DNA of 40,946 nucleotides from Candidatus Hecatellales archaeon (GCA_003661965.1 QMXD01000003.1:1-40946), one strand, 5' to 3'; positions 8,546-24,652 are shown, numbered from the stretch's first letter. Notes: generated by a model from the sequence alone, not told the origin. Made by a program: numbers and translations.

Positions 8546-9418
8546 ATGAATCTTCTAGAGGTTGTTTGCAGTAGACCTGTTGTTGGCTTGAATGATAAGC
8601 TTCTTTCAGTCTTAAATATTCTGGGTAGGAAGGGGACACCGTATAGGGTTGTTGTTCTTGGTGAAGATTTTAGGGTTAAGGGTGTTATTAGTGGACGTAG
8701 GATACTTGAGGTTTTGCTTGGTAGACGTGGTGAAGCATTAAAAACAAGGAAGGGTTTAAGGGGTGTTTTAGAGGAGCCTATAAGCCTATTTTTAGATGAG
8801 GCTAGAAACGTTTTCCCTGAAAACGTTACACTTCAAACGGTTTTACAGTATATGGCTGAGAATAGTCTTGGTTATATTATCGTGGTTAATGAGAATCATG
8901 TTTTTAAGGGTGTTGTTGATGAGGCTGCAATTTTAGGTAAACTTTTAAACAAAACTTTTGGTATTAAGGTTAAAGATGTTATGAGTTATCCTGCACTTAC
9001 AATTAATCCTGAAGCAAGCCTACTTGAAGCCTCAAACCTTATGGTTGATTCTAGGGTTAGAAGATTGCTTGTTACAAGGGATGATGTTTTAGTCGGTATT
9101 TTGACTATCACGGATGTTTTACACCATGTTTTGGTGAGAGAGAGGGAAATGGAGTCTGAGCTTTACGATGTTGAAACAATTTTTAAGGCTAAGGTTGATG
9201 AGGTTATGAATACAAACATAATTTCTATCTATCTTGAGAAGGATGTTGGTGAGGCTATAGACAAAATTATTGGAAACGATATAAGCTGTTTACCGGTTTC
9301 CGTTGAAGGTAAGCTTTCAGGTGTGGTTTGTAGGATAGACTTGGTTTCTGGAATTGTCAAAATTAAGGGTGTTCCGGAAGTAGTTAGGATGATGGGGTTA
9401 GAAGCCAAAAATGAGTAG
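8546..9418 (+). CDS. Stand-alone CBS-domain protein (about four CBS repeats)
   Basis: VKDVMSYPALTINPEASLLEA...RVRRLLV...LVGILTITDV and a second ISCLPV...LSGVVCRIDL repeat; overlaps treT by 8 nt. Confidence 0.85.
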   Translation: MNLLEVVCSRPVVGLNDKLLSVLNILGRKGTPYRVVVLGEDFRVKGVISGRRILEVLLGRRGEALKTRKGLRGVLEEPISLFLDEARNVFPENVTLQTVLQYMAENSLGYIIVVNENHVFKGVVDEAAILGKLLNKTFGIKVKDVMSYPALTINPEASLLEASNLMVDSRVRRLLVTRDDVLVGILTITDVLHHVLVREREMESELYDVETIFKAKVDEVMNTNIISIYLEKDVGEAIDKIIGNDISCLPVSVEGKLSGVVCRIDLVSGIVKIKGVPEVVRMMGLEAKNE

Positions 9419-10637
9419 TGTGTGTGTTCGAAAAATTAGTGATTATGAGCCTATAGTTGGCAGGGATGAGATTAAAACCATAGTTAGTTTAGCTGAGAGG
9501 GTTAAAGGTGCAAAAATAATTCATGTAAATTCTACAGCTTATGGTGGTGGTGTTGCAGAAATTCTTAAAAGTCTTATTCCTTTAGCCCGCTCGGTTGGTT
9601 TGGATGCAAGATGGCAGGTTTTACAGGGAAGCAAAGAATTCTTTTTTACAACAAAATCTATCCATAACGCTTTACAGGGAGACAACTCTATCGAGTTAAC
9701 AAGCGAGATGAGGGATGTTTACCTTAAAGTAAACGAGTTAAACGCTAAAACCTTAGACCTTGATGGGGATGTTGTTATGATTCATGACCCTCAACCTTTA
9801 CCACTCATAGACTATAGGAGGGATGGTAAATGGGTTTGGAGATGCCATATTGACACATCCCAGCCTAACAAACATGTTTGGGGTTTTATAAAACCTTTTG
9901 TTGAAAAATATGATGCTCTTGTTTTTTCACGTGAAGCCTACATTCCAAACGATATAAGAGGAATTAAGGTTTTTGTCAGATTTCCATCCATAGACCCTCT
10001 ATCAGATAAAAATAAGCCTCTCCACCAAACAGAAATCCTAAAAATTCTTGAAAGGTTTGATGTTAACCCTGATAAACCAATCATAGGTCAGGTTGCACGT
10101 TTTGACCCATGGAAAAATCCTTTAGGTGTTATAGACACCTATAGGAAGGTTAAAGAAAAAATATCTGAGGTTCAGCTTGTTCTTATAGGTTCTTTTGCCC
10201 ACGACGACCCTGAAGGCTTAGAATGGTATAAAAAAACTGTTAGGTATGCTGAAAACCTTAAGGATGTCTATATACTTACAAACATGGATGGTGTTTGTGA
10301 TGTTGAGGTTAACGGTTTTCAAAGAGCTTTCACTGTTGCTCTTCAACTTTCAATTAGGGAGGGTTTTGGTTTAACTGTTTCTGAGGCTTTATGGAAAGGT
10401 GTTCCTGTTGTTGCAACAAGGGTTGGAGGGATTCCTTTACAGGTTATTGATGGGGTTACAGGTTTTCTTATAAACACTGTTGAGGAGGCTGCTGAAAAAG
10501 TTGTTCTCCTAGTTAAAAGGGGATGGTTGGCTAGAGAGCTTGGAAGAAACGGTGTTGAACATGTTAAAAGAAACTTTTTGGTTACAAAAGACCTAAAAGA
10601 CTATCTTAGGCTACATATAGAGCTTGTTGGTAAATAG
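9411..10637 (+). CDS. treT: Trehalose glycosyltransferring synthase TreT-like (GT4)
   Basis: HVNSTAYGGGVAEIL, IHDPQP, WRCHIDTS, QVARFDPWKNP, EGFGLTVSEALWKG. Confidence 0.85.
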   Translation: MSSVCVRKISDYEPIVGRDEIKTIVSLAERVKGAKIIHVNSTAYGGGVAEILKSLIPLARSVGLDARWQVLQGSKEFFFTTKSIHNALQGDNSIELTSEMRDVYLKVNELNAKTLDLDGDVVMIHDPQPLPLIDYRRDGKWVWRCHIDTSQPNKHVWGFIKPFVEKYDALVFSREAYIPNDIRGIKVFVRFPSIDPLSDKNKPLHQTEILKILERFDVNPDKPIIGQVARFDPWKNPLGVIDTYRKVKEKISEVQLVLIGSFAHDDPEGLEWYKKTVRYAENLKDVYILTNMDGVCDVEVNGFQRAFTVALQLSIREGFGLTVSEALWKGVPVVATRVGGIPLQVIDGVTGFLINTVEEAAEKVVLLVKRGWLARELGRNGVEHVKRNFLVTKDLKDYLRLHIELVGK

Positions 10638-11993
10638 CTAATAGCTTTTAATAACAGACTCAAAAACGGTTTTTAAACGTTCAACAGCCACAGATATACT
10701 ACACTGTTTAGATGTTTCATATCCAACCTCACCCATCCTTAAAGCATCCTCCTCATTCCCTAAAAGATAACTTATTTTTCCTGCAAGCTCCCTATAGTCT
10801 TGGGGGTTATGGGTTAAACCGTTAACGTTTTCAATTATAAGCTCAGAAGAACCTGCACCCCTACTTACAACCACAGGTTTTCTGTAGTTCCATGCTTCAA
10901 CAACAGTTAAACCAAAACCTTCCATAAGTGAGGGAAGTAAAACCACGTCAGCCCTCATATACAAACATTTAAGCTCCTCCTCATCAACATAACCTAAAAA
11001 CTTTACAGAGTCTTCCACTTTAAGCTCCTCAGCAAGCTTTTTTAGTTCCCTTCTCCAGTTTTCACCTTTACTATGTCCAAGACTTGTGCTTGTAAAACTT
11101 CCATCCCCAACAAGCAAAAGTTTTGTGTTTGGGTTTTCTTTTTTAACTATGGGTAAAGCTTTTATTGCTGTATCCTGACCCTTAACCCTATCCATCCTTG
11201 CAACAACAAGAATAACCTTTTCATCTTCCATGATACCATACTTTGACAGGGTTTCATCAAGCTTTTTACCGTTCACCTTACCCCATTTTTCAGGGTCCAC
11301 ATAGGGATATATCTGGTAGGCTTTCCCATGGTAACCAGCACGAATTAAACCTTCAAGGTCTCTTTTTGTGCTTACAATCACAGCATCATAGCTTTCCATG
11401 TTTTTCATGATAAAGTTTCTTAGTCTTGGTGAAACATGCTCCAGCTTAAACGGTATATGCCAACGGAAGATTGTTGGGGCTGAGGGTCCTATCATACTTC
11501 CAACCTGAAGCTGTTGAAAATCATGAATCCAAAAAATGTCTATGTCTGGTAGAAACTTTAACATTGTTTGGGTGCAAAGCCAGTTATAGTAGGCGTATGC
11601 CTCATATTCCTCTTTCCTTATCTCCATTTTTCCAAGCCCATGAATTTCCCTCCAAATTCCCTCTTTAAAGCCTGTGTAACGTGGGACATAGAAGCTTGGT
11701 AGTTGAACGTTGTAGATATGAACCCCTTCGTGAAAAACTTCTAAGGGTGCGTTTGGGTTTAGGGAAACCCATTTTGGTGAGGAAACTAACCCTCTAACCA
11801 TAAACCTTTTTAGTATGGCATAGGTCATTTCAGCCACTCCGCCTGGTGTAAACTGGTAGTCTTCGTTTTCAACTAGGTCTTTTAGGTTTATGGGTTCGTA
11901 TAGGTAACCGTATTTTTCAAGAATCTCCTCATAGTTTAGTTTAAACCTGACTAGGGGTGTTTGGGTGTTTACACATAGCTTAATCTGATTCAT
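10638..11993 (-). CDS. GT4 glycosyltransferase, candidate non-OtsA trehalose-6-phosphate synthase
   Basis: NTQTPLVRF N-terminus, PGGVAEM, WIHDFQQL, FRWHIP, VARMDRVKGQD, EGFGLTVVEAW; divergent from T6P phosphatase gene. Confidence 0.75.
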   Translation of the reverse strand: MNQIKLCVNTQTPLVRFKLNYEEILEKYGYLYEPINLKDLVENEDYQFTPGGVAEMTYAILKRFMVRGLVSSPKWVSLNPNAPLEVFHEGVHIYNVQLPSFYVPRYTGFKEGIWREIHGLGKMEIRKEEYEAYAYYNWLCTQTMLKFLPDIDIFWIHDFQQLQVGSMIGPSAPTIFRWHIPFKLEHVSPRLRNFIMKNMESYDAVIVSTKRDLEGLIRAGYHGKAYQIYPYVDPEKWGKVNGKKLDETLSKYGIMEDEKVILVVARMDRVKGQDTAIKALPIVKKENPNTKLLLVGDGSFTSTSLGHSKGENWRRELKKLAEELKVEDSVKFLGYVDEEELKCLYMRADVVLLPSLMEGFGLTVVEAWNYRKPVVVSRGAGSSELIIENVNGLTHNPQDYRELAGKISYLLGNEEDALRMGEVGYETSKQCSISVAVERLKTVFESVIKSY

Positions 11994-12072: not shown

Positions 12073-12876
12073 ATGTTTAACATAAAAATATGGTTACAGA
12101 TGTCTCCAAAACACTTATACAGATTTTGGTTTGAGGTTGAGGGTAGGCTTAAAAAAGAGTCAAAAATATTTTTGATGTTGGATTATGATGGGACGATTGT
12201 TCCGATAGCAGAAAAACCTGAGCTAGCAATTTTAAACCCTAAGGTTAGGCTTCTACTCAAAAACATTGTTTTAAGAAGTGGAAAGTTTAAGGTTGCTATT
12301 GTTAGTGGAAGAAGCATTAAAGACCTTAAAAGCCTCCTCAGATTAAAAGACATATACTATGTTGGTGTTCATGGTTTAACGGTGGAAGGTCCAAACCTAA
12401 AGTTTACCCATAGGGAGGCTGTTAGGGTTAAACCTTTTATCGTTAAAGCCTATAGGGATTTGGCTGAAAGTCTTAAGGGTGTTAGTGGTGTTTTTGTTGA
12501 GGATAAGGGTTTTACTGTTGCTGTCCACTACCGTTTAGCAAAGGAAAACAGAAGAATTATAAGGGAAAGGGTTTTGTCGGTTAAAGCTAAATATGGTTGT
12601 TTTAGACTTTTGGAGGGGAAAAAGGTTTTTGAGCTTACGCCAAACATAGATTGGGGGAAGGGTGATGCAAGCCTTCTTCTGCTTAAAAGGTTTAGGTTTA
12701 AACATTTCCCTATCTATGTTGGGGACGATAAAACTGATGAGGATGCGTTTAAAAAGCTTAAAGATAAAGGTTTAACTGTTGTTGTGGGGAGGAAAAGGTT
12801 TTCCGAAGCCAAATACTACGTGAAAAACGTTAGGGAAGTTTGGTTTCTCCTCCAAAAACTTCTTTCCCTACCTTAG
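12073..12876 (+). CDS. otsB: Trehalose-6-phosphate phosphatase (HAD IIB); alternative start ATG 12100
   Basis: LMLDYDGT, VSGRS, VEDKGFTVAVHYR, GKKVFELTP...WGKG, YVGDDKTDEDAF. Confidence 0.9.
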   Translation: MFNIKIWLQMSPKHLYRFWFEVEGRLKKESKIFLMLDYDGTIVPIAEKPELAILNPKVRLLLKNIVLRSGKFKVAIVSGRSIKDLKSLLRLKDIYYVGVHGLTVEGPNLKFTHREAVRVKPFIVKAYRDLAESLKGVSGVFVEDKGFTVAVHYRLAKENRRIIRERVLSVKAKYGCFRLLEGKKVFELTPNIDWGKGDASLLLLKRFRFKHFPIYVGDDKTDEDAFKKLKDKGLTVVVGRKRFSEAKYYVKNVREVWFLLQKLLSLP

Positions 12877-12877
12877 C

Positions 12878-13951
12878 TTAGGGGGAAGCCAAAAAACCTT
12901 TAATCCTTTCAGCTATGTTGAATGGGTTTGAGGCTATTATGCTTGAAGCATAAAGCTCCATAGCACCAATATCCGACACGTTTTGGTTTAACAAGCCCCT
13001 ATCAACAATTCTTACTATGTATGGGAAATCATCCCATCCATTAACTTTTTTAGCTGGCGGGAAAACCATAGAAAGGTTAAAAGAGTATACGTTTAGGCTT
13101 TTGTAGGCTTCCAAAACCTTATGGATGACTTTAGGAAGATTCCTGTTCCAGTTGTGGGTAAACATAAAAACCTCTTTTTCCTTTATTGGTGTAAGATAAA
13201 CAAAAACCTTAACCCCACCATAGGTTAAACCTAAACCAAGAACCCTATGTATATGGTAAAGGTCTTGAAGATAGTTTGAACCGTAGGTTTCCCTATACCT
13301 TTCCATGCATAAACGTAAATATTCAGGTTTAGGGTAAGGCTTCCTACTCATCATCACCTGAAAATGGCTGTGGTTTTGGCTTGCTCCAGCCCTCCAAAGA
13401 CAATTCCATATCAAATATGGGAAAACAGCCCTAGAATCCTCCCTATTCACCCTTTTAAACCATTGGACGGCTGTTTTAAACCCGTCTAAAAGCTCTTTAA
13501 GGCTTAGCTTTAAAGGGTTATGTTTTCTGGGGATAATTAGACTATGCCAACCATCATATTTAGCAATGTTTGCTGCTGTGGTTGTGTAGGCTGACTCAAT
13601 TCTTCCAAAAACATCTTCAGCTGTCTGGTTTTTGGGGTTACATAGCATACATTTTTCCTCGGTAAACGTTGGAGGCTGGGTTTCCTGTTTTTTAGCGGTT
13701 CTTAGGGCTCTAAGCTGGTTGTAGAAGGCTCCCTCAAAGGTAACCTTGTTTACAACCTTAACTATTGTTTGTTTTTTAACAGCTTTTAAGCTTCCAAACC
13801 TCTCTTTAGCAAAACTTTTTAAGGTTGGGGGAATTTTAAGTCTTCCAACAACAACCTCAACCTCAAAAATTCTATGAAAAATTTTTTTATCTTTTTTTGG
13901 AAGCTTTTTTACAAGTTTAGGTAGCATAACCATATCCATGTTTAGCTTCAA
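12878..13951 (-). CDS. GalT-like (HIT superfamily) sugar-1-phosphate nucleotidyltransferase / NDP-sugar phosphorylase
   Basis: CMLC Zn site, HSLIIPRKH, NCLWRAGASQNHSHFQ with the HxHxQ catalytic signature. Confidence 0.72.
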   Translation of the reverse strand: MKLNMDMVMLPKLVKKLPKKDKKIFHRIFEVEVVVGRLKIPPTLKSFAKERFGSLKAVKKQTIVKVVNKVTFEGAFYNQLRALRTAKKQETQPPTFTEEKCMLCNPKNQTAEDVFGRIESAYTTTAANIAKYDGWHSLIIPRKHNPLKLSLKELLDGFKTAVQWFKRVNREDSRAVFPYLIWNCLWRAGASQNHSHFQVMMSRKPYPKPEYLRLCMERYRETYGSNYLQDLYHIHRVLGLGLTYGGVKVFVYLTPIKEKEVFMFTHNWNRNLPKVIHKVLEAYKSLNVYSFNLSMVFPPAKKVNGWDDFPYIVRIVDRGLLNQNVSDIGAMELYASSIIASNPFNIAERIKGFLASP

Positions 13952-14053
13952 CCTTTGATAGTTTCTTTCTCCCCAAAATATAAAAGACTAAAATTTTTTT
14001 GTCTATGGTTTCCATAAAAATTTTAGGTGAAGTTTTCTTTTGGTGGTGGGGGA

Positions 14054-18910: not shown

Positions 18911-19921
18911 TTGGAGGTTGAAAGAATGTTTAACCCATGGATGGATTTTTTCCCTGAAAACCTTGTAAACCTAAGCTTTGAATCCATCCATGGGCTTAAA
19001 GGTGAAAAGCTTGAGGTTGAAGGTTTAATAAGGTCTGAGGAAACTTTAAACCTTGAAGGGGAAACAGAAACCCTAAACCTAAAAACCTTTAAAAAAGAGG
19101 ATCTTGAAAAAAGAGTTTTTGAAATTTCCCCCCTAAACGATTATGTTACCGTTGTTGGTGTTGATATTTCCCTAAGAAAAATTGGGAATACAAAAAACGG
19201 TGTTGTTTGTGCTTTTAGGGGGACAGTTGTATGGAAGGATGAATATGCATACCATTACACAAGGTATGGACCACTCCTATACCATCTAACAGAAAACCAT
19301 GCAAAAACAGTTTTTGGTTTAAAGTTTGATGGTGGAAACCCAAACCATAACCTTGGAAAAATCCAGTTTTTTGTTGAAAAGGTGTTTCAAAAACATGTTC
19401 TTAGAAACCTTAAAAACTCTATAGTTTTGTTTGATGGATGTTTATCAACCCAAATGGTAAACGTTGAAACCTTAAACTTGGCTAGAAAAAACAATAATAG
19501 GGTTTTGGCTTTTGCTAAAAAAAGTAGGCTTTACTCTTGGAGTGAACCCCTAAAGGTTTTAAGGGAAAAGTTTTCACCATGTATTCTTTGTCTTAACGAC
19601 CTCCTATCTGAAAGCTTTAAGTCAACATGTCTTGGATGGGTTTTTCTAGCTAAACTTTCAAAAGAAAACTTTTTGTTTAGGCTTGATGTCGATAAAACTT
19701 TAGCCCTTGATGAGGCTGTTCAAACCGTTAGAAGACTTATAGGTAACGAACATTTCCACCACGGCTACCCTGAAACCCTAAGAATTGCACACTCCCTCTC
19801 CATCCTAACAAGGGTTGAAGTTATCGCCATCCAACGTTTTCTAACAGAAAAACTTGGAATCAAAATTTTGAGGCCTGAAAACCATAGAAGGATGCTTTTC
19901 GGTCCCTTTGGAGGATGGTAG
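18911..19921 (+). CDS. nurA: NurA-family 5'-3' nuclease
   Basis: GVDIS, LFDGCL, AFAKKS, GYPETLRIAH motifs; adjacent to herA-mre11-rad50. Confidence 0.82.
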   Translation: MEVERMFNPWMDFFPENLVNLSFESIHGLKGEKLEVEGLIRSEETLNLEGETETLNLKTFKKEDLEKRVFEISPLNDYVTVVGVDISLRKIGNTKNGVVCAFRGTVVWKDEYAYHYTRYGPLLYHLTENHAKTVFGLKFDGGNPNHNLGKIQFFVEKVFQKHVLRNLKNSIVLFDGCLSTQMVNVETLNLARKNNNRVLAFAKKSRLYSWSEPLKVLREKFSPCILCLNDLLSESFKSTCLGWVFLAKLSKENFLFRLDVDKTLALDEAVQTVRRLIGNEHFHHGYPETLRIAHSLSILTRVEVIAIQRFLTEKLGIKILRPENHRRMLFGPFGGW

Positions 19922-19925
19922 GTAG

Positions 19926-21371
19926 GTGAAGCTTTTTAAGAAAGAGGATGAAACAATCCAGATTCTTTGTTTTCCCGATGAGGATGTTAGGAAGGGAGAC
20001 TATCTTATGGTTGAAGATTTTAGAAGTGGGAGAAGTCTTCTTGTTCAAGTTATAGATATTAGGTTTGCAAACTTTCCAGGTTTAATGGAAGACCTTCTTA
20101 GGGACGAGTTAACAGAAAAAATTGTTTTTGGTGATGATTTTGACCCTTTAGGGCTTGAAACCCAGATAACCCTTTTAAGGGATGTTAGAATTCTTCTGGG
20201 GAAAATTAGATGTTCAATTGAGGATGGAAAATTAAACATGAATATTTCATGGTTGCCTTCAAGAACCCATTCAAGAGTTTATAAGGTTGATGCTTTAAGG
20301 CTTGTTGAACTTTTAAAGCTTGGCAAAAAAAGACCCCTAAAAATTGGTGAGATGAATGGGGGTTTAGAGTTAGCCATAGATGTTGATGGGTTGGATGGAG
20401 GCTTAACAATAATTACGGGTAGGAAGGGGACAGGAAAATCCCACCTATCAAAACTTTTAATTCTTGGCTTGGTTGAGTATGGGGCACCATGTGTTGTTTT
20501 TGATGTTAACGGTGAATATGTAAACCTTGGCTTAGATAAAAACGGTGAAAAAAACAAGTATTATGAGAGGATAGTTGTTTTAGAGCCTACAAAAAACTTT
20601 AAAATAACCCTAAACTACGCTGGAAAACATATTTTAGCAAACATTTTAACCTATACGCTTGGGCTACCTCAAACCTCCCTTAGAGAGTTTTTTAGGGTTT
20701 GGGATGAAACAATCCAAACAAACCATCTAACAATCAAAAAAATTGTTGAAAGGGTGAAGGTTTCAAACCTACATGAACATATTAAGGAGGCTTTACTTTC
20801 AAGACTTTACACCTTGGAACGTTCAGGATTTTTTACGGATGAGGAGTTTAAGCTTGTAAGGGTTGAGGATGTTTTAGGAAGGGTTTCTGGTGGGGGTGTT
20901 ATTGTTTTAAACCTTAGTAGGCTTCCAAACCTTGAAAGAAAAATTGTTGTTGAGTTTATGCTTGGAAAGCTTGTTGAACTTTTAAAAAGATGGTTTGTTA
21001 AAGCAATATTTCTTTTTGCTGAGGAGGCTCACCTATATTTAAGAGAAACCTATTGGGAGGATATAGTTACAAGGATGAGACATTTAGGCTTATTCACCTT
21101 TTTTATAACAAACCAGCCTGACTCCATCCATGAGGATATTTATAGGCAGGTTGACACATTTTTTCTTTTCAACTTTAAAAACGAAAACGATTTAAACACG
21201 ATTACAAAAGTTTCTAAGGTTGATAGTGAATCTATGAAGTCTATCACATATTCGCTTGAACCCTACCATTGTTTGGCTGTAGGTCAAGCTACAAAAGAAA
21301 TTCCTTTAATTATAAAGGTTAAAGAGTTGCCTGTTAAAACCATGGGGGAGACAAGAAAATTTTTTAGTTAG
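19926..21371 (+). CDS. herA: HerA-like ATPase/helicase (DUF87)
   Basis: ITGRKGTGKS, VFDVNGEY, FLFAEEAH, ITNQP; N-terminal HAS-barrel-like region; operon context. Confidence 0.88.
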   Translation: MKLFKKEDETIQILCFPDEDVRKGDYLMVEDFRSGRSLLVQVIDIRFANFPGLMEDLLRDELTEKIVFGDDFDPLGLETQITLLRDVRILLGKIRCSIEDGKLNMNISWLPSRTHSRVYKVDALRLVELLKLGKKRPLKIGEMNGGLELAIDVDGLDGGLTIITGRKGTGKSHLSKLLILGLVEYGAPCVVFDVNGEYVNLGLDKNGEKNKYYERIVVLEPTKNFKITLNYAGKHILANILTYTLGLPQTSLREFFRVWDETIQTNHLTIKKIVERVKVSNLHEHIKEALLSRLYTLERSGFFTDEEFKLVRVEDVLGRVSGGGVIVLNLSRLPNLERKIVVEFMLGKLVELLKRWFVKAIFLFAEEAHLYLRETYWEDIVTRMRHLGLFTFFITNQPDSIHEDIYRQVDTFFLFNFKNENDLNTITKVSKVDSESMKSITYSLEPYHCLAVGQATKEIPLIIKVKELPVKTMGETRKFFS

Positions 21372-21374
21372 GGT

Positions 21375-22592
21375 TTGGTGGAAGGGTTGAAGCCTTTTAG
21401 TTTTGTTCATATTGCTGACATCCATTTAGGCTATATGCAATATAATCTGGCTGAGAGAAGAGAGGATTTTGCAAAAGCTTTTATTGAGGCTGTTGATAAA
21501 ACCATCAAGCTTAAACCATCCTTTGTTCTTCTTGCAGGAGACATTTTTGACAGTCCAAGACCTTCAAACCAAACCTTAGCCACAGCAATCCGTGAGCTTA
21601 GAAGGCTTAGGGATTCTGGGATTAGGGTTTTTGCTGTTGACGGCTCCCACGACCTAGAACCAAACATCATGACAGGAACAATTCTTATCCCCCTCCATAA
21701 TGCAGGTTTAATAAGTTATCTGCCAAGACTTGAGGGTGGATGTTGGAGGGATGAAAACTGCTATATTTATGGGGTTCAAAGCTCAAGAAGCCTAAGGGAG
21801 GCTGACGAAAAAATTCCTGAGTATATGAGGAGGAATCCTCCAAAACCAAACCCAAACCTATTCAACATATTTGTTTTTCATGGAGCCTTAGATAACCCAA
21901 AATATGTTCCACCCTACCTAAAACCAGACCTTAGGATGGAGTATCTACCAGAAGGCTTCAACTATTATGCTGGGGGACATGTTCATGAGCCATCCATCCA
22001 AAAATTTAAGACGGGAGTTTTAGCCTATCCTGGATGTCTTGAAACAACAACCTATACTGAGGCAGAAATCCAAAAAGGCTTTTACTATGTTGAGGTTGAG
22101 TCTCCTGATTCTCCACCAAAAATTGAAAGAATAAAAATTGAGAATACTAGAAGGTTTGTTGTTGAGGAAAGGGATTTTTCAGGTTTAACCCCTGAAAAAA
22201 TAACCTTGGAAGCCTCAAACCAAATCCTAAAAATGGATGTTGAGGATGCTATCCTAGTTCTCCTGTTAAAGGGTGAACTTCCACCAGGTTTTAAGAAAAG
22301 CCAAATAGATATGCCAAGGATTAAGGCTTCAGCAAAAAAAGCCTTGTATACTGTTGTTTTAAACCAGATGGTTGAGTCTGAACAGCAAAAACTTCCACCA
22401 AAAATTAGGGAGACTAGGGAGCTTAAAACAGTAGCCTACGAGTATCTTCTAAAAATGTTTAGGGAGCAAAAATATCCTGAAGAATTTTGTTTAAGGATGG
22501 CTAAAACTGCCATAGACATTCTTGACCCATTACTTGGTGGGGATGAGGAAAAGGTTAAATCTATGTTGGAGGAGGCTGCCAAAAAACGATAA
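21375..22592 (+). CDS. mre11: Mre11 nuclease
   Basis: ADIHLG, AGDIFD, DGSHD, FHG, GGHVH, YPGCLE phosphoesterase motifs. Confidence 0.93.
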   Translation: MVEGLKPFSFVHIADIHLGYMQYNLAERREDFAKAFIEAVDKTIKLKPSFVLLAGDIFDSPRPSNQTLATAIRELRRLRDSGIRVFAVDGSHDLEPNIMTGTILIPLHNAGLISYLPRLEGGCWRDENCYIYGVQSSRSLREADEKIPEYMRRNPPKPNPNLFNIFVFHGALDNPKYVPPYLKPDLRMEYLPEGFNYYAGGHVHEPSIQKFKTGVLAYPGCLETTTYTEAEIQKGFYYVEVESPDSPPKIERIKIENTRRFVVEERDFSGLTPEKITLEASNQILKMDVEDAILVLLLKGELPPGFKKSQIDMPRIKASAKKALYTVVLNQMVESEQQKLPPKIRETRELKTVAYEYLLKMFREQKYPEEFCLRMAKTAIDILDPLLGGDEEKVKSMLEEAAKKR

Positions 22593-24652
22593 TTAAAAGG
22601 TTAACCCTCCAAAACATTAGGTCACATTTAAACTCTACTGTCGAGTTTAATGAGGGGTTTAACTGTGTTGTTGGAGGGGTTGGTGCAGGAAAAACATCAA
22701 TCTTGCTTGCTCTCCATTTTGCTCTTTTTGGTGAGCCTTTATACAGGTCTTACGAGTATCTTCTAAGGGAAGACAAGAATATTGGTCGTGTTATGCTTGA
22801 GTTTGAACATGCAGGTAGAGTTTATGGGTTGGTTAGGGTTCTTAGAAGAGAAAGAGGTAGAATAGTTCAAGACCCCTCAGAACTACGTTTAACAGAAAAC
22901 GGTAAGGTTTTAGCTTGGGGTAGGGTTGCAGCAGTCCAAGAGCAGCTAAAATCTATCATAGGTATAGATAAAAGAATGTTTGAGGAGTTTATATGGGTTC
23001 AACAGGAAAAGCTTAAAGAAATTTTGAATATGGCTCCACGTCAAAGACAGGAGATTCTTGATGAGCTTTTTGGTTTTTCAGCCTTTAAAAAAGCATGGGA
23101 AACCCTACACCTATACCAACGTGAATACGATAGGGAAAAAAACCTTCTAGAAAGAGACCCTGATGTTGTTGAGCTTAAAAACCTAAAACAACAGTATGAG
23201 GAGTTAATGTCAGACCTTATAAAACTTCAGGTTGATGTTGAAACCTTAGAGGTAGACCTTTCCGAGGTTACAAAAAAGCTTGGGAAGGCTGAGGAAACCC
23301 TTAAAAGTCTTGAAGCCTTAGAAAGGGAGACTGAAAAACTAAAAGAGGAAAAATCTTTGTTGGAGAGTAGGCTTAGCGAAACCCAAGCCTACATTAACAG
23401 TCTTAAAAGTCAACTGGAAAATAGAAGGTTGGAAGCTGAAGAATATAAAAAGACTTTAGAGAATCTTAAAAGGGAAAGGGGGGAGATTTTAAGCCAATTT
23501 TCAAAGAATAGTTTGGAGGAGTTATCTCAGACTGTTGAGGGTATAGAGTTTAAGGTTGGTAGGCTTAGGGATGAGGTTGCAAACCTTAAGGTTGAGGTTA
23601 GAAAGGCTGAAGAATCAATCCTTGTTGTTGAAGCTGAAAATGTTTGTCCAACCTGTCGAAGAGAGATAAGCCAATCTTTTAGGGAGGAGCTAAAAAACAG
23701 GTTAAACAAGGAAAACATAGAAAAACAACAAAAAATATCTAGGCTTGAGGCTGAGCTTGAAAATTTGGAGTTTGAACATAAGCTTATTCTTGAAGCTAAA
23801 ACAAGAATAGAGCTTTTAGAGTCTAAGATAGCTGAAACTGAGAAGCTTATCCAGATGAGAGAAAGGGATGTTGGTAGGCTGGTTGAAGAGCTAAACGAAA
23901 AAGAAAAACTTGAGTGGGAGCTAAAAACAGGATTGGATAAGGTTTCCAAAAAAATTTTTGAGTTTAAGGTTGAAGATGTTGAGAATGCAAGAAAAACACG
24001 TGAAGAACTACTTTTAAAACGTAACGAAATTTTAAACACAATAAAACATCAAAAAAGGCTTATTGAAGAAAAAAAATCTTATGTCGACTCTATTGAAAAA
24101 AGGATTAGGAATGCTGAGGAAAAGCTTAAAAGAAAAAGTTTGGTTGAGGATGTTTTAAAAATTATAGCTGGTCTTAGAGCATCCTACAAAGAGGTTGTTC
24201 CACTTTTAAGAGGCATGTATATTGAAGGGTTAAGAGAGGCTGTTCAATCTGTTATGGATAGCCTAACCCAAGGCTCAGGCAGAAACCTTTACGTTGAAAT
24301 AGACGATGAATACACACCAAGACTTATAGGTACTGCTGGTTTTAAGAGGGATGCAAACCTTATCTCAGGTGGAGAAAGAACATGGCTTGCCCTAGCCTAC
24401 AGGATAGGTTTAGGTCAACTTATAATGGAGGCTAAAACAGGTCAAAACCTTGAACTACTAATCCTTGACGAGCCTACAGAAGCCCTAGGAACAGAGGATA
24501 GAAGCATAGAAGTTTTAGCCACAGCAATCTCAAACCTAAAAATGGTTAGACAAATTTTAACAGTCACCCATTCCGAGGAGCTTGCAAAAGAAGCCTCAAC
24601 AAGAATTTTTGTTGTAAAAAAGAATGAGGTAAGCAATATAGAAAAAATGTAG
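22586..24652 (+). CDS. rad50: Rad50 SMC-like ATPase (688 aa), probable non-canonical ACG start (ORF track starts at 22703, after Walker A)
   Basis: In-frame ACG-ATA-ATT-AAA gives (M)IIKRLTLQNIRSH...GGVGAGKTS; WVQQ Q-loop, CPTC hook, ISGGER, LILDEPT, VTHS. Gene identity is secure; start position is inferred. Confidence 0.92.
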   Translation, partial: TIIKRLTLQNIRSHLNSTVEFNEGFNCVVGGVGAGKTSILLALHFALFGEPLYRSYEYLLREDKNIGRVMLEFEHAGRVYGLVRVLRRERGRIVQDPSELRLTENGKVLAWGRVAAVQEQLKSIIGIDKRMFEEFIWVQQEKLKEILNMAPRQRQEILDELFGFSAFKKAWETLHLYQREYDREKNLLERDPDVVELKNLKQQYEELMSDLIKLQVDVETLEVDLSEVTKKLGKAEETLKSLEALERETEKLKEEKSLLESRLSETQAYINSLKSQLENRRLEAEEYKKTLENLKRERGEILSQFSKNSLEELSQTVEGIEFKVGRLRDEVANLKVEVRKAEESILVVEAENVCPTCRREISQSFREELKNRLNKENIEKQQKISRLEAELENLEFEHKLILEAKTRIELLESKIAETEKLIQMRERDVGRLVEELNEKEKLEWELKTGLDKVSKKIFEFKVEDVENARKTREELLLKRNEILNTIKHQKRLIEEKKSYVDSIEKRIRNAEEKLKRKSLVEDVLKIIAGLRASYKEVVPLLRGMYIEGLREAVQSVMDSLTQGSGRNLYVEIDDEYTPRLIGTAGFKRDANLISGGERTWLALAYRIGLGQLIMEAKTGQNLELLILDEPTEALGTEDRSIEVLATAISNLKMVRQILTVTHSEELAKEASTRIFVVKKNEVSNIEKM

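Follow-up and report, generated by a model that had tools for sequence, protein, structure and literature searches.

A gene for a GalT-like protein lies among trehalose genes in a 40,946-nucleotide stretch of DNA from Candidatus Hecatellales archaeon (GCA_003661965.1, QMXD01000003.1:1-40946; this whole stretch is hereafter called the window), and it raises the question of what such an enzyme does where no galactose genes accompany it. We predict that the product is an active enzyme from a Pfam-negative and as yet undescribed family in the GalT branch of the HIT superfamily and that it catalyses the reaction NDP-glucose + Pi <-> NDP + glucose-1-phosphate via His196 (NDP, nucleoside diphosphate; Pi, orthophosphate); we rate the chances that this reading is right as about even. 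The family is new and unmodelled, but the kind of enzyme is known. To our knowledge, the only characterised ADP-glucose phosphorylase is the plant enzyme, the physiological role of which is still unclear. If our reading is true, textbook schemes of prokaryotic glycogen, trehalose and sucrose metabolism miss a recurrent enzyme, and for this archaeon the gene is a candidate extra step in a compact trehalose gene block. A literature search found no paper characterising the family or any prokaryotic glgA-linked GalT-like enzyme, and a 2024 review of prokaryotic alpha-glucan enzymes, in at least part of its text, mentions no HIT/GalT-type partner of GlgA (PMC11046441).

Fold, active site and extent of the family

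The gene and the protein features on which the assignment depends are the following.

12878-13951, minus strand: GalT-fold HIT-superfamily gene, 357 amino acids (aa) if read from the TTG at 13951
13358-13372, minus strand: HSHFQ, residues 194-198, the GalT-branch H-x-H-x-Q motif
13640-13651, minus strand: CMLC, residues 101-104, which pairs in alignment with the E. coli GalT Zn ligands C52/C55
13697-13711, minus strand: RALRT, residues 81-85, a GalT-type R-x-x-R phosphate-binding motif
13772-13939, minus strand: family-specific N-terminal extension, residues 5-60, with helices and one strand

The replacement of H-x-H-x-H by H-x-H-x-Q defines the GalT branch (bioRxiv 10.64898/2026.09.13.751320). 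A sequence-only reading of this DNA had pointed to an HSHFQ motif and a CxxC in a GalT-like protein, and both are indeed present. H196 is predicted to be the nucleotidyl-accepting histidine, H194 a Zn ligand and Q198 the glutamine of the GalT branch. Profile alignment (hhalign) with E. coli GalT is weak (E 0.12) but colinear: it pairs R81/R84 with R28/R31, C101/C104 with C52/C55, and H194/H196/Q198 with H164/H166/Q168, and it places H144 within one residue of H115. The Zn site pattern of class I GalTs (CxxC, a His and the first motif His) is complete in the window protein.

The protein has two tandem HIT-like half-barrels in one chain, which is the class I GalT architecture. Structural comparison gave scores of 21.2 for E. 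coli GalT, 20.9 for human GALT and 19.9 for Pyrobaculum aerophilum GalT, as against 14.5 for DUF4931 and 9.2 for Apa2. The top structural match was ADP-glucose phosphorylase, but this was tied with the GalTs within 1 Z unit. From the structural model, we conclude that the window protein has the class I GalT/ADP-glucose phosphorylase fold and belongs to the GalT branch of the HIT superfamily.

Curated sequence models do not recover this relationship. No Pfam model matches the window protein at E<=0.01, and relaxing the limit to E<=10 brings in only CDO_I and Ap4A_phos_N; NCBIfam gave no match either, and the class I GalT models PF01087/PF02744 (IPR001937) and the DUF4921/DUF4931 models PF16268 and PF16285 are likewise unmatched. 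Searches of the PDB gave three marginal matches, namely yeast Apa2 as the best with the single sequence (E 0.06), and At5g18200 (1z84, E 0.08) and P. aerophilum GalT (6k5z, E 0.12) with the family profile; in all three, RxxRP and HxHxQ are correctly aligned. The label 'GalT-like' used in the earlier reading is based on fold and weak profile matches, and is invisible to Pfam and NCBIfam.

The Apa2 match brings up a different enzyme, an Apa1/Apa2-type dinucleoside-polyphosphate or adenylylsulfate phosphorylase with only incidental sugar neighbourhoods. This agrees with the E of 0.12 for Ap4A_phos_N in Pfam, with the title of one JGI relative (ATP adenylyltransferase/Ap4A phosphorylase II) and with a Dehalococcoidia clade in which the gene lies between purH and a pncA-pncB fusion. 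The window protein showed neither a match to the Apa1/Apa2 models PF19327/PF09830 nor the fold of Apa2-type monomers, which includes an auxiliary domain, and we consider this enzyme type improbable.

Among the relatives of known structure, the ADP-glucose phosphorylase At5g18200 of Arabidopsis thaliana (PDB 1Z84, 1ZWJ, 2H39) shares 15-17% identity with the window family, and the class I GalTs (E. coli 1HXP/1HXQ, human 5IN3/6GQD, P. aerophilum 6K5Z) share approximately 14-16%. Apa2 (4I5T/4I5V) and the DUF4931 protein BCE0241 (4QVU) are, like the window family, GalT-branch HxHxQ enzymes. Unlike At5g18200, the window family, known from sequence and fold, carries approximately 55-60 additional N-terminal residues and lacks a PF01087/PF02744 match; unlike the class I GalTs, it has no galK/galE partners and no Pfam GalT match, and it adjoins glucosyltransferases of storage and compatible-solute pathways. 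The N-terminal extension has no counterpart in At5g18200, class I GalTs or the Atlas GalT clusters, and holds residues that are conserved across the family alignment. Structural alignment to At5g18200 begins at model residue 61-63, and the Atlas GalT clusters align from residues 55-62; as R81 corresponds to E. coli R28, the approximately 90 extra residues claimed earlier are an overestimate.

The query aligns over 95-99% of its length with at least 800 relatives of 340-390 aa, none of which has a precomputed Pfam domain, and an exhaustive search yielded 884 representatives at 50% identity. Since no Pfam or NCBIfam model exists, the family is annotated as hypothetical almost everywhere, and nearly all relatives bear the title 'hypothetical protein'. 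Members occur in the bacterial groups Chloroflexota, Bacillota, Actinomycetota (Rubrobacteraceae), Bacteroidota, Thermodesulfobacteriota, WOR-3 and Patescibacteria, and in the archaeal groups Archaeoglobi, DPANN archaea, Nitrososphaeria and Bathyarchaeia. According to record titles, they include cultured organisms (Ktedonobacter racemifer, Dehalococcoides mccartyi, Rubrobacter, and relatives of Archaeoglobus and Thermodesulfatator), which makes the function directly testable. No relative as long as 626-2000 aa turned up in a search for fusions, which is weak evidence, and the longer family representatives carried no informative Pfam domain.

In 229 near-full-length representatives, R81 is kept in all 229, H196 in 228, H194 in 224 and Q198 in 218. 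With this near-invariant catalytic set, family members look like active enzymes. Within the CxxC, only 55 of the 229 retain the first Cys (120 have Asp there), and 144 retain the second. The fold and the conserved catalytic residues can be regarded as established.

Several Bathyarchaeia relatives (G001, G003, G004, G008, G009, G027 and others) encode one or two more GalT-like paralogues, 347-372 aa long (L095-L102, L111-L115). These are approximately 25% identical to the window protein, are Pfam-negative and are of no help in naming the family.

Gene neighbourhoods and the NDP-glucose pool

We called open reading frames (ORFs) in 80 loci together with their 10-kb flanks, clustered them and annotated the cluster representatives; 77 of these loci contain the family gene. 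Glycogen synthase is the commonest partner of the family. The glgA gene lies directly upstream on the same strand at 17 of the 77 loci, and at a distance of 1.9 kb at one more (TIGR02095, 553 bits), while a glycogen cluster of GT3 glycogen synthase, GH57, GDE_C, GT4/5 and NTP_transferase genes is found at six, from three clades (two unclassified bacteria; the DPANN/Euryarchaeota SM23-78 group; Archaeoglobus). Seven loci from Rubrobacteraceae/Actinomycetota have an upstream GT4 glycosyltransferase (GT) that resembles sucrose-phosphate synthase or sucrose synthase (SPS/SuSy-like) and is fused to a PfkB sugar kinase. A true GlgC is encoded upstream at one Anaerolineae locus (435 bits), a GT4 lies 100-150 bp downstream of the family gene at two Hecatellales loci, and trehalose genes occur at three of the 77.

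The recurrent partners, which are GlgA, GT3, SPS-like GT4, a fusion of trehalose-6-phosphate synthase and phosphatase (TPS-TPP) and TreT, all use NDP-glucose, which ties the family to the NDP-glucose pool. Their common denominator is an NDP-glucose donor and an NDP product. A quick maximum-likelihood tree places glgA adjacency in at least four separate clades and gives the trehalose link at least two origins. This recurrent neighbourhood is an established feature of the family.

A strict Leloir UDP-glucose:galactose-1-phosphate uridylyltransferase that merely happens to lie near trehalose genes would share the class I GalT fold and motifs. The neighbourhoods argue against this, since there are no gal genes among the recurrent neighbours in the 77 loci. 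In the window, neither galK nor galE was found, as had been noted from the sequence: other domains were identified in the 10 adjoining ORFs and in 10 more, which together include every ORF of galE or galK size. Together with the unmatched Pfam GalT models and the conserved N-terminal extension that is the family's own, this makes a Leloir enzyme highly improbable.

The place directly downstream of glgA is also taken by a separate sequence family. Four weak profile matches beside glgA (G072, G108, G214, G238) are proteins of 335-348 aa that match PF01087/PF02744, with genes starting 15-30 bp after glgA. They relate to the family profile with an hhalign probability of 89.6% (E 1.9e-6), and these Pfam-positive proteins (e.g. 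L125:1823-2830) lack the N-terminal extension of the Pfam-negative window family. The sharing of the post-glgA slot by two GalT-branch families argues for an equivalent function.

The sequence-only reading had further suggested that the enzyme could supply or recycle NDP-glucose. The tie to the NDP-glucose pool, seen across approximately 80 loci, upholds one side of this suggestion; the supply role fares less well. In five genomes with a glgA-family gene pair, GlgC was missing above the curated cut-off in all five, which prompted the idea that the family substitutes for GlgC. A random sample of 251 Chloroflexota genomes was therefore searched with the family profile, TIGR02091 (glgC) and TIGR02095 (glgA), with GlgC called at E<=1e-80; G103 and G246 enter only the GlgA-present/family-absent cell of the resulting table. 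The family was present in 35 genomes, and glgA was directly adjacent to the family gene in 12 of these. GlgC was found in 23 of the 35 genomes with the family and in 90 of the 216 without it (odds ratio 2.7), and GlgA in 26 and 104, respectively (odds ratio 3.1); as the sampled genomes are interrelated, Fisher p-values overstate the effect. Among the 65 genomes with GlgA and without GlgC, the family was found in nine and was missing from 56, and two genomes (G290, G226) have glgC-glgA-family gene operons. As a general rule, the substitution idea was rejected on these three grounds, and the positive co-occurrence indicates that the family occurs alongside the classical pathway and does not stand in for GlgC.

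The same chemistry could also run biosynthetically, as the main source of NDP-glucose, made from glucose-1-phosphate and the NDP that TreT, TPS or GlgA sets free, in place of GlgC or GalU. The five pair genomes and the nine Chloroflexota genomes would fit this, as would the host genome (1.3 Mb in 154 contigs, 90% complete), in which no NTP_transferase reaches any equivalog cut-off. That genome nonetheless has five NTP_transferase genes and one PGM/PMM. The co-occurrence with GlgC, the 56 genomes without the family and the operons count against the biosynthetic direction, and the equilibrium reported for At5g18200 would, in the synthetic direction, hold NDP-glucose at sub-micromolar levels at cellular Pi, so that we attach little probability to it.

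As observations on individual clades, the Rubrobacteraceae fusion measures 820-890 aa (L051:7290-9968, with equivalents in L056, L066, L068, L075 and L080), is encoded directly upstream of the family gene and is preceded by a standalone PfkB kinase and SPS-like GT copies. Small-genome archaea (DPANN and Euryarchaeota SM23-78; L059, L023, L065) have a conserved glycogen cluster in which the family gene is joined by genes for a GT3 glycogen synthase of the eukaryotic type (PF05693, 521 bits), GH57, GDE_C, a GT4/5 and an NTP_transferase, and by a radical-SAM gene.

The predicted reaction and its physiological direction

By analogy with class I GalT and ADP-glucose phosphorylase, His196 would attack the alpha-phosphate of NDP-glucose, releasing glucose-1-phosphate and leaving a covalent enzyme-nucleoside monophosphate (NMP) on His196. 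The NMP would then be passed to an acceptor, most likely orthophosphate. This covalent-NMP ping-pong mechanism is summarised in bioRxiv 10.64898/2026.09.13.751320. The enzyme would thereby link the glucose-1-phosphate pool to the NDP-glucose/NDP pair of neighbouring GT-B glucosyltransferases, the partners being TreT and a GT4 candidate trehalose-6-phosphate (T6P) synthase with its phosphatase in this archaeon, and mostly glycogen synthase elsewhere. The substrate (glucose, and the nucleotide that it carries), Pi as the acceptor and the physiological direction are inferences.

GlgA of the type found beside the family uses ADP-glucose. TreT accepts ADP-, UDP- and GDP-glucose, according to the review cited above (PMC11046441). 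With partners that differ in this way, the nucleotide of the family enzyme cannot be named. The family probably does not act on galactose but converts NDP-glucose to glucose-1-phosphate and back. The proposal that the enzyme resembles ADP-glucose phosphorylase rather than a Leloir enzyme gains from the absence of a gal context and from At5g18200 being the closest solved relative, and loses from the structural tie with the GalTs. At5g18200 reportedly prefers Pi as the acceptor, and McCoy et al. are reported to have found, in 2006, a Keq of 5-40 towards ADP and glucose-1-phosphate; with this constant, phosphorolysis would be favoured at cellular Pi.

Sequence cannot distinguish between supply, recycling and drainage of NDP-glucose by the enzyme. 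Phosphorolysis would be compatible with two roles, a drain or set-point on NDP-glucose beside GlgA, and disposal of NDP-glucose formed by a reversible TreT or a sucrose-synthase-like enzyme; the fructokinase fusion in Rubrobacteraceae would suit this disposal role. As a tentative extension, which we think rather unlikely, the family might supply the missing step that completes a phosphorolytic bypass made up of two enzymes: a reversible glucosyltransferase that forms NDP-glucose would split a disaccharide with catalytic NDP, and the family enzyme would then phosphorolyse this NDP-glucose; beside GlgA, its activity would be a drain that conserves energy and determines the level of ADP-glucose. 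If this were true, the partner would be TreT here and the SPS/SuSy-like GT fused to fructokinase in Rubrobacteraceae, and the two steps would add up to trehalose (or sucrose) + Pi -> glucose (or fructose) + glucose-1-phosphate, consuming no ATP and needing no dedicated disaccharide phosphorylase.

A GalT-type sugar-1-phosphate nucleotidyltransferase would instead transfer the NMP from NDP-glucose to another sugar-1-phosphate, and so interconvert NDP-sugars. The structural tie means that these two enzyme types, phosphorylase and hexose-1-phosphate transferase, cannot be told apart by structure. The neighbourhoods speak against such an exchange: there is no recurrent adjoining kinase for a second sugar-1-phosphate and no epimerase, and every recurrent partner uses glucose donors. 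PF01087/PF02744 are also unmatched, and we regard the exchange enzyme as unlikely, if still worth considering.

Like this tie, several other observations weigh against the NDP-glucose phosphorolysis that we prefer. The CxxC of the Zn site is complete in only about a quarter of family members. Thirteen Dehalococcoidia loci, which form one clade in the tree, have purH, a pncA-pncB fusion or a GT2 as neighbours, and neither glgA nor glgC is present in three genomes of this kind; at L018 the nicotinamidase fusion lies directly downstream and purH directly upstream of the family gene, with no sugar genes. This context is unexplained by an NDP-glucose reaction. Approximately a third of the loci have no sugar gene nearby, many of them being on short contigs. 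The window protein itself is on a long branch in the quick tree and is 63% identical to the copy in the sister genome, as compared with 78-84% for TreT and GT4. Finally, its gene is a lone transcription unit, convergent with the trehalose-6-phosphate phosphatase gene and divergent from a flavin reductase gene.

The trehalose block of the archaeon

The genes and the intergenic region around the GalT-fold gene are arranged as follows.

8546-9418, plus strand: CBS-domain protein (Pfam/NCBIfam), overlapping the TreT start codon by 8 bp
9411-10637, plus strand: TreT-type trehalose synthase (PF21269, 196 bits; NF041139, 524 bits, below the cut-off of 775)
10638-11993, minus strand: GT4 glycosyltransferase, 451 aa, with weak TreT_GT1, GT20 and OtsA similarity
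12073-12876, plus strand: trehalose-6-phosphate phosphatase (TIGR00685, 134 bits, cut-off 68)
13952-14026, no strand: divergent intergenic region of 75 bp between the GalT-fold gene and the flavin reductase gene

With the GalT-fold gene on the minus strand, the block consists of four tightly packed units in alternating orientation (CBS and TreT forward, GT4 reverse, phosphatase forward, GalT-fold gene reverse), and is not an operon. On the far side of the GalT-fold gene, a flavin reductase, a histone deacetylase (HDAC)-like protein and GatE are encoded (Pfam/NCBIfam). The OtsA model matched the GT4 over positions 16-416 of 456 with 53 bits. A GT4-type T6P synthase has been described as Saci_1249 of Sulfolobus acidocaldarius (PMC7688234), and by analogy the GT4 of the window may be such an enzyme in a relative of the Bathyarchaeia, outside the Sulfolobales.

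The trehalose context claimed earlier holds for this window, and the linkage to treT and otsB recurs. In the sister genome of the same genus, the whole CBS-TreT-GT4-TPP-family gene-flavin reductase-HDAC block is kept. An uncultured archaeon of another clade (L064) encodes a family protein 43% identical to that of the window, and its gene divergently adjoins a GT20-TPP fusion of 642 aa, followed by a CBS protein and TreT. The TreT proteins of the two archaea are 68% identical and the CBS proteins (L064:6692-7561) 41%. The repeat of the CBS-TreT pairing in an unrelated archaeon suggests that the CBS protein is a dedicated nucleotide-sensing regulator of TreT. TreT fragments lie beside the family gene at L027. 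The Hecatellales genera nearest to the window have no TreT or TPP near the family gene; the contexts of the closest metagenomic relatives (P0003, P0010, P0013) were read from genome searches. The sister block and L064 thus show that the trehalose association is real and recurrent, yet a minority pattern. It is specific to certain lineages, namely the genus of the window and one or two other archaeal lineages, and glycogen synthase dominates elsewhere.

The host genome holds a single copy of the GalT-fold gene. In this 90% complete assembly, searches detected no PF01087 GalT, no GlgP (PF00343) and no GT5 glycogen synthase (PF08323), and with neither of the latter two detected, a coupling to glycogen cannot be claimed for this archaeon.

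The ATG at 13939 is the likelier start of the GalT-fold gene; from it, the gene spans 12878-13939 on the minus strand and encodes 353 aa. This start is preferred because it is shared by the homologues in the alignment and by the database entry P0002 (353 aa), and because sequences that, read by eye, resemble a Shine-Dalgarno motif, AGGT(T)GA, and, farther from the gene, a TATA element, TTTATATTTT, lie upstream; the putative TATA-like element and AGGTTGA precede the ATG in the 13952-14026 region. At its other end, the gene converges with the trehalose-phosphatase gene, with 1 bp between the two stop codons.

Several observations stand apart from these results. In L018 (11114-12670) and its Dehalococcoidia relatives, the pncA-pncB fusion (approximately 515 aa) joins an isochorismatase-like nicotinamidase to a nicotinate/quinolinate phosphoribosyltransferase-like domain. 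In an Archaeoglobales metagenome-assembled genome (L060:1447-4776), the ribonucleotide reductase (RNR) large subunit encoded beside the family gene contains an intein bearing a LAGLIDADG domain; the RNR at the same position in Archaeoglobus L028 is without an intein. The remainder of the window encodes housekeeping functions, including a V-type ATPase, a HerA/Mre11/Rad50-like block, Pus10, diphthamide synthase, FEN1 and an AAA ATPase. The block, at 18911-24652 on the plus strand, apparently comprises HerA (DUF87), an Mre11-like phosphoesterase and a Rad50-like AAA protein, and it is preceded by a Pfam-negative ORF of 336 aa at the place expected for NurA.
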